A stretch of DNA of 63,000 nt, filler included, from Diploschistes diacapsis (taxonomy: Eukaryota), in NCBI GenBank assembly GCA_023645945.1. It is 23 parts of 23 records of this genome, joined end to end, with 100 filler letters (N's around TTAATTAATTAA, not from the genome) between each part and the next. Parts side by side here need not be neighbours in the genome. Positions count along the whole stretch, not along the records: positions 41,775 to 60,604 come from JALAIB010000396.1; 22 more parts are not named here. The stretch is one strand, 5' to 3'. Positions 5,917-57,771 of the stretch are shown here, in pieces (the first letter of the stretch is position 1; the number at the start of each line of letters is the position of its first letter). Position numbers and translations under genes: made by a program. Under the pieces are notes generated by a model. That model did no database searches. It was given only the letters and a program-made list of their open reading frames with translations, and had not been told where the DNA came from.

Positions 5917-6257
5917 NNNNNNNNNNNNNNNNNNNNNNNNNNNNNNNNNNNNNNNNNNNNTTAATTAATTAANNNNNNNNNNNNNNNNNNNNNNNNNNNN
6001 NNNNNNNNNNNNNNNNCGATTATTTAATCGAAACCAGAAACGTCGTTTTAAATAAAAAAATATTATAGATTTAGAATCCCGATACCGTATTAATTATATA
6101 AAGAATATATAAATTATAAGATATATAAATAACGACGTTATGGATCTCGATATTTTAATTAATAAATCCCGGTTTAATTAGAAGAAAAGGGTTAAAGGAT
6201 TCAACGAGGGACCTTTAATTAAAGGAAAAAAATATTTCGAATGTAATAAGATTGGTT

Positions 6258-56449: not shown

Positions 56450-57771
56450 ATGGTAAGCAACAATGAATTCAGAACTGCTTGAAGGCCCCGATGCAGCTCA
56501 TGCGGCTATGGAGTTGCTTTTCGGAGCTGCAGTCGCTGCAAGACAAGATGATACTTCATTTCTTTTTTCTGTTCCATCCTCACGTCCTCTTTACTCTCCT
56601 ACCGATACTGAGGCACTATCTGACTGGGTCTATCAGTCTTCGGGCAACACCGCAGGCACAGACCCTGCAAAGGTTGCGGCAGACTTTGAGGAGCGATGCG
56701 CAGCGGTCAAGATCAGCAAGCCGTAAGTAGCTTTCCTTCGTCTTCCTGCAGCCTGTAGGAATTGCCGTATGATGCAAGACACTTTACAATGGGAATCTCT
56801 CTGAACACCTTGAGGAGAACCTAAGTTTATAGCTAGATACTGACTGTTTTTGATGGCTCTATCATCATGCCATTTGCAATTTGTGGCTTTCTACTGATTC
56901 GACCCTTTGTAGGCAAATCAACTCCATCATCATGGATTACCTGGTGGCTGAAGGCTACCCGAAAGCTGCCCAGGATTTTGCTCGTGAGGCCAATATTCAA
57001 CCGTCTGGAGATGTAGACACACTCGAAGCTCGGAAAGATATCAAGCTTGCTATTTACGGCGGCAGGATCAAGGAGGCTATTGGGATGATCAACGAAATAA
57101 ACCCACTGGTGAGCCGGAGTTTTTAGTCTTGTCGTTCTCGCTATGATTAGTCTAGTTTCATGCACCACTCATATACCTAAGGGTGCTGATGAGCAAACAA
57201 ACCTAACTTCAGTCTTCAAAATGAGCAATGAAATCTCCCTCCTTCTATCCACAACAAGTAAAGGCACCTAGCTGACACTTGATAGATCCTTGAACAAGAC
57301 CAAAGCCTTCATTTCTCGCTTCTTCGCCTTCAGTTGATAGAGCTTATCAAAGAATGCAACCATTCTGATGAGAAGGACATTCAACCCCCTCTACAGTTTG
57401 CCACAGATAATCTCGCCCCTGTCGCGCCCACCAATCCCCAATTTCTCAACGACCTGGAGCAGACAATGGCCCTCCTTGTCTTTGATGAAGCTAAGCTCAC
57501 GCCACCTCTGGAGGCTATTCTCGATCCGCAGCTCCGGATGGACATCGCCAAGCAAGTAAATGAAGCAATACTTCGTGCCAACGGTGAGGCTTCAGGCGCC
57601 CGGCTCATTGAAATTCTTAAGACTCGTGTCTGGGCTGAAGCTCAAGCTCGGAAGCTCGGCAAGCTGATTCCTCAGAAGATCGATATCGGTCTTGATCCTC
57701 CTCAAGAGGTAGAGCTAGAGCGCGAGGGACATGGTGATGGCAATGGCGAGGATCAGACAATGGCTGGGTGA
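56450..57771 (+). CDS. GID8: GID/CTLH complex subunit Gid8 (LisH-CTLH-CRA)
   Basis: Exons ATG(56450-52), 56637-56722, 56913-57108 and 57286-57771; LisH INSIIMDYLVAEGYPKAA; LHFSLLRLQLIELI. Confidence 0.9.
56766..56846 (+). ncRNA. Intronic box C/D snoRNA (LSU rRNA guide)
   Basis: Box C ATGATGC 56769; guide TGGGAATCTC with D' CTGA 56801; C' TGAGGA 56811; D CTGA 56840. Confidence 0.75.
57140..57226 (+). ncRNA. Intronic box C/D snoRNA, snR40-like double guide
   Basis: Box C ATGATTA 57143; guide CATGCACCAC (18S); C' TGATGA 57187; guide ACTTCAGTCTTCAAA (LSU); D-variant ATGA 57221. Confidence 0.8.

Follow-up and report, generated by a model that had tools for sequence, protein, structure and literature searches.

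An intron in a LisH/CTLH (GID8/FYV10-like) gene of Diploschistes diacapsis raises the question of whether it conceals a small nucleolar RNA (snoRNA) of the box C/D class and, if so, which ribosomal RNA (rRNA) nucleotides that snoRNA could guide for methylation. The intron occupies positions 57109-57285 of a stretch of 63,000 nucleotides from this genome (hereafter "the window", i.e., the whole stretch of DNA that was analysed). A previous reading made from the sequence alone (hereafter "the sequence-only reading") had placed in it a hidden, double-guide, snR40-like RNA with non-canonical D' and D boxes, and all the motifs then listed are present in the 177-nt intron. The best explanation, which we hold with high confidence, is that positions 57138-57228 correspond to an intron-borne box C/D snoRNA with two guides, one for the G of 18S rRNA equivalent to yeast Gm1271 and another for an A of the large subunit (LSU) rRNA, and that this RNA and Neurospora crassa CD55 are orthologs.

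The intron and the element that it carries

The intron has GT..AG borders. Its excision fuses the LisH exon (56913-57108) to the CTLH exon (57286-57768) with the frame kept and, when the intron at 56723-56912 is removed as well, a single open reading frame is obtained, which starts with the ATG at 56463 and closes with the stop codon at 57769-57771; in the gene model built here, the snoRNA-bearing intron comes second among the introns of the coding sequence. Pfam matches were found for LisH in the preceding exon (E 3.1e-09) and for CTLH in the following one (E 7.9e-22), and the database homologs of the CTLH exon carry the names GID8, FYV10 or CTLH-domain protein in their sources. In nine contigs from related metagenomic loci (L009, L013, L026, L034, L049, L059, L061, L065 and L071), exon 2 is joined directly to exon 3 without an intron. 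These contigs resemble spliced transcripts and, in consequence, they confirm the splice junction in relatives of the window's gene. The parts of the locus are the following:

57109-57285 (+): host intron, based on its GT..AG borders, its in-frame removal, the Pfam matches of its flanking exons and nine contigs resembling complementary DNA (cDNA)
57138-57141 (+): 5' strand of the terminal stem, UCGC; in the window, the stem is weak and consists of 2 bp, one mismatch and 1 bp
57143-57149 (+): box C, AUGAUUA (ATGATTA in the DNA), in which U replaces G at position 6
57158-57169 (+): guide 1 (the D' guide), U-CAUGCACCAC-U, antisense to 18S GUGGUGCAUG(G)
57170-57173 (+): degenerate box D', CAUA, at the place where Rfam models align CUGA
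57175-57184 (+): short hairpin ACC-UAAG-GGU between D' and C', read from the sequence
57187-57192 (+): box C', UGAUGA, seen in the sequence
57206-57220 (+): guide 2 (the D guide), ACUUCAGUCUUCAAA, antisense to LSU UUUGAAGACUGAAGU
57221-57224 (+): box D, AUGA, seen in the sequence
57225-57228 (+): 3' strand of the terminal stem, GCAA, based on covariation across orthologs

At the DNA level, CATGCACCAC spans 57159-57168 and is followed by a T at 57169, and ACTTCAGTCTTCAAA occupies 57206-57220. The innermost pairs of the terminal stem in the window (G57140-C57226 and C57141-G57225) are covered by the span 57140-57226 that had been proposed before. The window's box C keeps the R, the U and the first GA of RUGAUGA, and its box D keeps the UGA. 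Regarding the latitude of these motifs, the first GA is described as the absolutely conserved part of box C, and the 5' C of box D is reported to be replaced in 4.2% of cases in fungal snoRNAs, usually by A (Canzler 2018, PMC5824354).

Conservation in orthologous introns and homology to CD55

Related metagenomic loci were collected with a 35-sequence alignment of the GID8 exon-3 protein as query, which holds no snoRNA or intron information, and 80 loci were returned. The intron is kept in 70 of them; the other ten are nine cDNA-like loci and one contig that begins at the exon. The core of guide 1, ATGCACCAC, is invariant in all the 70 intron-bearing loci, about 140 nt upstream of exon 3, and the whole architecture recurs in the same 70 loci, so that the motif array is more than the product of chance. 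Boxes were counted in the window plus 69 fully parsed loci (57 distinct sequences; the remaining locus, L042, is cut at its 5' end). Box C reads ATGATTA in 67 cases, AGGATTA in two and ATGATTT in one (the variants are all outside the window); box D' reads CATA in 52, CTTA in 11, CCTA in three, CGTA in one and the canonical CTGA in three; and box D reads ATGA in 60 and CTGA in ten. The two non-canonical boxes of the sequence-only reading are thus borne out: (i) AUGA, a known fungal variant, is the majority state of box D (59 of the 69 parsed loci, in addition to the window); and (ii) the CTGA of three orthologs (L076, L078 and L079) stands at the exact place of the window's CATA, where Rfam models also align CUGA.

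The distance from box C to box D is 73-93 nt. Box C' is TGATGA in most orthologs, with the variants TGGTGA, TGCGGA, TGTGGA, TGCTGA and TGTTGA, and the hairpin between D' and C' is mostly of the (C)CC-UUCG-GG(G) type, with a long insertion in N. crassa. Variation is free in the spacers, in the D'-C' insert and elsewhere in the intron; conservation is confined to the boxes, the guides and the terminal stem. A comparison of GID8 introns across relatives had been suggested as a check on the initial proposal, and the boxes and guide 1 are indeed kept in the orthologous introns. Box D ends 61 nt before the 3' splice site in the window and 61-92 nt (median 72) before it across orthologs.

The terminal stem, mostly UUGC/GCAA in the orthologs, shows changes on both sides in four of its five pairs. 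In the alignment A2, 77.8% of its cells are paired versus 66.4% in shuffles, none of 500 shuffles reaches the observed value, and slid controls are lower. RNAalifold found no consensus structure beyond this stem in the ortholog alignment, as expected for the box C/D class, and the guides are hence left single-stranded. In box C/D RNAs, the kink-turn includes a pair between the G at position 6 of box C and the C at position 1 of box D. At these two positions, U/A was found in 52 of the 57 distinct sequences and U/C in five; a U-A pair could plausibly stand in for the G-C pair, although it is not obligatory, since box D CUGA occurs beside an unchanged AUGAUUA box C in those five sequences. No covariation supports the proposed U-A pair.

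Is the conserved block a snoRNA at all, or is it a splicing or regulatory element of GID8 whose rRNA complementarities are coincidental? That only boxes, guides and terminal stem are conserved, with compensatory changes in the stem, makes the latter very improbable, even if the non-canonical boxes, the lack of an Rfam family above threshold and the folding of the whole intron, no better than that of shuffles (z = 0.43), would agree with it. Complements of rRNA of 15 and 10 nt, each exactly at a box, are likewise unexpected by chance and, furthermore, in N. crassa the ortholog has been both cloned, from a box C/D library, and detected by Northern blot. The element is best regarded as a genuine box C/D snoRNA, conserved in the same GID8 intron across the Pezizomycotina.

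The borders of this snoRNA were also considered. No ortholog shows conservation downstream of 57228, unlike the stretch from AUGAUUA to AUGA, and therefore an alternative delimitation fails in which the UGAUGA at 57187-57192 would serve as box C and the CUGA at 57271-57274 as box D, with GUG...CAC as flanks. Both motifs are canonical and 3 bp could close them, but that CUGA is part of a branch-point-like CTGAC near the 3' splice site and the CD55 cDNA ends just past AUGA; we regard this delimitation as extremely improbable.

The relation to CD55 (GenBank EU780979) was examined by eye, by comparing the window with the printed sequence (Liu 2009, Additional file 1). CD55 contains AUGAUUA, CAUGCACCAC-G-CAUA, a long insert, UGAUGA and a terminal AUGA (Liu 2009, PMC2780460). 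It is 137 nt long, maps to chromosome IV, is intronic and, after being cloned from a box C/D library and detected by Northern blot, was listed as "Orphan", its description giving no complementarity to rRNA or to small nuclear RNA (Liu 2009, PMC2780460). In a later survey, the family Nc_CD_55 is "exclusively found in Neurospora" (Canzler 2018, PMC5824354). As judged from this comparison, the window RNA is the ortholog of CD55. The GID8 intron of locus L063 carries a CD55-like version of the element, with the same GAACACGAGUUU spacer and the same CCAACCACUUUUUU-AUGA end; in a quick host-protein tree, drawn with one row per distinct protein, L063 groups with the sordariomycete Escovopsis, and L076 lies on a long branch nearby. 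The match to CD55, together with the L063 copy, makes the window element orthologous to an expressed RNA and extends the family across the Pezizomycotina. "Hidden" is only partly apt for the window RNA, since its N. crassa ortholog was already cloned in 2009, as an orphan.

As for its biogenesis, we infer from the general way in which intronic snoRNAs are made that an RNA of about 85-90 nt would be freed from the spliced GID8 intron by debranching, and that exonucleolytic trimming would stop at the terminal stem and the box C/D kink-turn. The kink-turn would bind Snu13, Nop56, Nop58 and fibrillarin, with the U at position 6 of box C facing the A at position 1 of box D in replacement of the G-C of the kink-turn stem.

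The two guides and their predicted rRNA targets

Guide 1 forms 10 Watson-Crick pairs and one wobble with 18S rRNA, an antisense stretch of at least 10 nt next to box D'. Its 10-mer complements 18S GTGGTGCATG, which is present in every region-covering 18S piece examined (none of them from Pezizomycotina), as is the sequence GGTGGTGCATGGCCGTT; the complementarity to 18S that had been put forward for this guide therefore stands. The duplex has an energy of -20.0 kcal/mol, a value that none of 500 shuffled guides reaches. In N. crassa, the same 18S strand is drawn paired to CD34, the snR55/U33 homolog, which directs Um1265 (Liu 2009, PMC2780460, Additional file 4). The fifth guide nucleotide upstream of CAUA faces N. 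crassa G1267, the second G after the U methylated by CD34, and the register is the same whether it is counted from CAUA or from the CUGA of L076, L078 and L079. We take yeast Um1269 and Gm1271 to be the marks that correspond to N. crassa Um1265 and G1267. The earlier assignment of the D'+5 position to the Gm1271-equivalent G thus agrees both with the canonical boxes of these three orthologs and with the N. crassa register. The same position, 18S-1271, is the D' target of snR40 (Canzler 2018, PMC5824354), and the guide list of N. crassa gives no other guide for the equivalent site (Liu 2009, Table 1, PMC2780460). By pairing with 18S GUGGUGCAUG(G), the D'-side guide should direct the 2'-O-methylation of the G equivalent to yeast Gm1271 and N. 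crassa G1267; in that case, the 18S rRNA of Diploschistes diacapsis is expected to read GUGGUGCAUGG.

Guide 2 directly adjoins box D and is a perfect 15-nt Watson-Crick complement of LSU TTTGAAGACTGAAGT. Prokaryote assemblies were scanned for the target with its short flanks as pattern, and TTTGAAGACTGAAGT occurs in all the 27 eukaryotic rDNA contaminant contigs thus fetched (by a pattern that contains it), in the context ...GTAGTAGCAAATATTCAAATGAG-AACTTTGAAGACTGAAGTGG-.... These 27 short contigs (L081-L107) carry eukaryotic LSU rDNA within bacterial or archaeal assemblies, i.e., they are contamination; a scan of viral contigs for the LSU anchor returned one unrelated LSU piece. Rfam confirms LSU_rRNA_eukarya for two of the 27 contigs, and the target also matches the consensus of that family, AAAUAuUCaAaUGAGAaCuUuGAagaCuGAAGUGG, in which uUCaAa and uUuGAa are drawn as the two strands of a hairpin (about 1480-1497 in model positions for the target region). 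According to this layout, guide 2 covers the 3' strand of the hairpin and the nine bases after it. The LSU complementarity of the 15-mer is accordingly exact, as first read. The duplex has an energy of -25.8 kcal/mol in the window, which none of 500 shuffled guides reaches, and by our own arithmetic a 15-mer drawn at random would find a match in some 5.4 kb of rRNA with a probability near 5e-6.

The fifth nucleotide upstream of box D faces the A in UUUG(A)AG. The D-side guide should, by pairing over 15 nt with the 3' strand of the hairpin and the bases that follow, direct the 2'-O-methylation of this A. In N. crassa, the 26S strand AGUAGCAAAUACU carries Am1430 (Liu 2009, PMC2780460). Counting from Am1430, the predicted site is about N. 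crassa A1455, if there is no insertion or deletion between them. On the same assumption, it would be yeast A1474, with yeast Am1449 presumably the counterpart of Am1430. To our knowledge, this A is absent from the yeast and human methylation lists. The region also differs from the LSU site of yeast snR40, which we take to be U898: the proposal of a second guide aimed at another LSU site is upheld, in so far as the guide is a conserved element and not a chance match. In C. thermophilum, a pseudouridine is reported at 26S-1453, in "H47 ... hairpin at PTE" (PMC12723226). Provided that the numbering offsets are right, the predicted site is found four nt 3' of this position; the name H47 for the target hairpin depends on those offsets and is tentative for that reason; the covered parts of the supplement to the C. 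thermophilum study contain no list of 2'-O-methyl sites (PMC12723226).

Guide 2 varies among lineages. Over the 70 intron-bearing loci, its forms are distributed as follows:

41 loci: ...CAGUCCUCAGU, with box D AUGA (majority form)
5 loci: close variants of the majority form
10 loci: ...CAGUCUUCAGU, with box D CUGA
10 loci: ...CAGUCUUCAAA, with box D AUGA (the window's form)
2 loci: ...CAAU
2 loci: element lost (L063 and L076)

The core CTTCAGT is kept in 68 of the 70 loci, and L063 and L076 retain box C, guide 1 and box D, having lost the second guide as in N. crassa CD55. What had been described in the window as a 15-nt second guide is hence a conserved element, but its exact 15-nt form is a minority one (10 of the 70 loci).

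In the majority form, guide position 6, beside the target, is a C and faces an A in yeast-type LSU. Either the fungi with this form have a G at that LSU base or the element does not methylate the site in them. The window, the loci, the contaminant rDNA pieces and one complete rDNA unit, none of this rDNA being from Pezizomycotina, contain no perfect target for the majority guide; the only matches obtained were to the same LSU site, with a single mismatch, and to 11 nt in an expansion segment of a yeast-like LSU. The latter was rejected as a target, since this variable segment is not conserved. The LSU A opposite position 6 has as its partner the base that opens the hairpin, and both bases are in lower case (variable) in Rfam. 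This opening base is C, not U, in the N. crassa 26S strand (Liu 2009, PMC2780460), and also in the complete rDNA unit, from an unknown eukaryote (L112), where G stands opposite (CTCCAG...CTGGAG). At 6040-6110 (-) of L112, the hairpin reads CTCCAG-AGAGGCC-CTGGAG versus TTCAAA-TGAGAAC-TTTGAA, so that several pairs are replaced in a compensatory manner. This unit belongs to an array of tandem rDNA repeats that extends over 12 kb or more in the assembly G005, which is contamination as well. If most Pezizomycotina had the C-G pair, the majority guide would fit exactly from position 3, with a G-U at position 2. The forms with U at position 6 would fit an LSU A, or a G by wobble, and they match the LSU perfectly or nearly so (-22.0 to -25.8 kcal/mol). 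Plausibly, then, the variation of guide 2 between lineages tracks a covarying base pair of the rRNA.

With regard to its distribution, a clade of the host-protein tree with 97% SH-aLRT support comprises the window, every drawn locus with the U form ending in CAGU and three loci with the window's form (L001, L054 and L014). The same clade holds the lichen fungi Xylographa, Icmadophila and a Lecanoromycetidae sp.; the exact place of the window within it is unsure, owing to its long branch. The window's form recurs inside the majority-form clade (L073 and L077), and a near copy of it is found in a dothideomycete-like clade (L011 and L012).

Could only the 18S guide methylate, the D side of an otherwise real box C/D snoRNA being a relic or pairing with the LSU precursor or another RNA, for instance as a folding helper? 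We consider this unlikely. Neither in yeast nor in human is the predicted LSU site known to be methylated, guide 2 is dispensable in L063, L076 and CD55, and its majority form mismatches yeast-type LSU at position 6, all of which would suit such a role. Nevertheless, a D-side core of 14 nt abuts box D in methylation register in 68 of the 70 loci, and the variable positions (1, 2 and 6) change in such a way that LSU pairing improves or stays; as seen above, the forms with U at position 6 are perfect or near-perfect on the LSU, and the C form suits an LSU that carries G in a base pair for which covariation is observed.

Several observations weigh against the two-guide snoRNA itself. Guide 2 is gone in two loci and in CD55, and in 41 of the 70 loci it opposes a C to the yeast-type A next to the target. 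Guide 1 is limited to its 10 Watson-Crick pairs plus one wobble. In the window, the second GA is missing from box C and D' departs strongly from the consensus, and five of the 57 distinct sequences combine a CUGA box D with an AUGAUUA box C. On the window, all Rfam families stay below their gathering scores, with 14-19.5 bits for the best local matches, and no RNA sequencing run with the window's locus was found among the runs listed. Finally, CD55 is left without a target both in Liu 2009 and in Canzler 2018.

A broader joint reading of the two-guide snoRNA is put forward with some reserve, as somewhat short of an even chance. It would combine (i) the missing guide of filamentous ascomycetes for the Gm1271-equivalent site, with CD55 as a degenerate member; (ii) a methylated A in LSU domain III that is specific to Pezizomycotina and absent in yeast and human; and (iii) co-evolution of guide and target. 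Within it, the target hairpin would probably be C. thermophilum H47, near the tunnel exit; hairpins closed by C-G would go with a C at guide position 6; and the U at position 6, with extra pairs at positions 1-2, would have arisen independently in the lichen-forming Lecanoromycetes and in at least two other lineages.

Neighbouring snoRNA, database matches and known systems

A second snoRNA was found in the upstream intron (56723-56912) of the same gene:

56763-56848 (+): box C/D snoRNA similar to U79 and to N. crassa CD14

It has AUGAUGC, the guide UGGGAAUCUCU followed by CUGA as in CD14, and a box D CUGA at 56840-56843. CD14 is the U79 homolog and targets 26S-Am2288 in N. crassa numbering (Liu 2009, PMC2780460). 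The Rfam family SNORD79 scores 19.5 bits on it in the window, below threshold, and 29.6 bits in L078. The core of the CD14 guide lies upstream of the CD55-type snoRNA in the window and in 58 of the 69 loci; ten of the other 11 have less than about 350 nt of upstream sequence, and the eleventh is L063. A homolog of the U24b/CD51 guide was not found in the window. A match to the trypanosomatid H/ACA family TB9Cs3H2 at 57158-57187 (-), across from guide 1 on the other strand, with 18.1 bits versus a gathering score of 50, was taken as chance.

Regarding Rfam, a search of which had been proposed as a check, no family attained its gathering score; the sub-threshold alignments do locate guide 1 and D'. 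On the window, snoMe18S-Gm1358 gives 16.2 bits and snoZ221_snoR21b gives 14.0 bits, with their CAUGCACCACU guide and CUGA aligned onto CAUGCACCACU-CAUA; the families that align CUGA to the place of the window's CATA are snoZ221_snoR21b, snoMe18S-Gm1358 and the SNORD33/32 family. Among orthologs whose D' is canonical, the scores on snoZ221_snoR21b rise to 33.5 and 32.5 bits (E values of 2.6e-4 and 5e-4), against a gathering score of 44, and the orthologs also give weak matches to snoMe18S-Gm1358 and the SNORD33/SNORD32 family. No snR40-named family appeared among the matches listed with E <= 10 on the window stretch or E <= 5 on four orthologous loci; the snR40 family of Canzler 2018 (CD_43) has 90 sequences (PMC5824354).

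Afu-199, an orphan of 79-80 nt in intron 1 of Afu7g02320, was considered as a candidate for the Aspergillus fumigatus ortholog; no Afu_199-named family appeared among the matches listed for the Eurotiomycete-like locus L008. Five guide and target strings had no occurrence in the supplements of a T. rubrum paper, and full-text literature searches for the target strings returned nothing relevant. Among sequencing runs, the window stretch was found in one lichen-metagenome run, from which it may derive, and 0.64 and 0.47 of its words in two others.

What would these results mean? They assign a predicted function to the published orphan CD55, an RNA that is not confined to Neurospora, and would supply for filamentous fungi the missing guide of a universally conserved 18S methylation. 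They also predict one LSU methylation that is missing in yeast and human; lineages that lack guide 2 should lack the mark. For annotation purposes, an element with AUGAUUA and AUGA boxes and a CAUA D' slips past Rfam and rule-based finders. Our understanding of how box C/D RNAs work is unchanged by the finding.

Three known systems can be compared with the window RNA. U79/CD14 shares its host gene, with one snoRNA per intron and conservation of both together, but it has canonical boxes and another target. CD55 shares box C AUGAUUA, the guide CAUGCACCAC-N-CAUA, C' UGAUGA, box D AUGA and an intronic location, every one of which is found in the window; CD55, however, has 137 nt, a long structured D'-C' insert and a D side ...ACCACUUCUUU without most of the LSU complement, while the window RNA would have a length of about 85-90 nt and keeps its 15-nt second guide intact. 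Lastly, in snR40 (yeast), U32 = SNORD32 (human), Z221-R21b (plants) and Me18S-Gm1358 (Drosophila), the guide ...CAUGCACCACU abuts D' and selects the same 18S G as in the window. The snR40/U32/Z221 families differ from the window RNA in their canonical C, D' and D boxes and in their other second guides, and the second guide to U898 that would strictly define an snR40 is lacking in the window. The Rfam scores of the orthologs, although below the curated thresholds, support a relation to the U32/snR40/Z221 group by descent or by convergence and, as far as sequence can tell, the window RNA is the functional counterpart of snR40/U32 at the 18S site.

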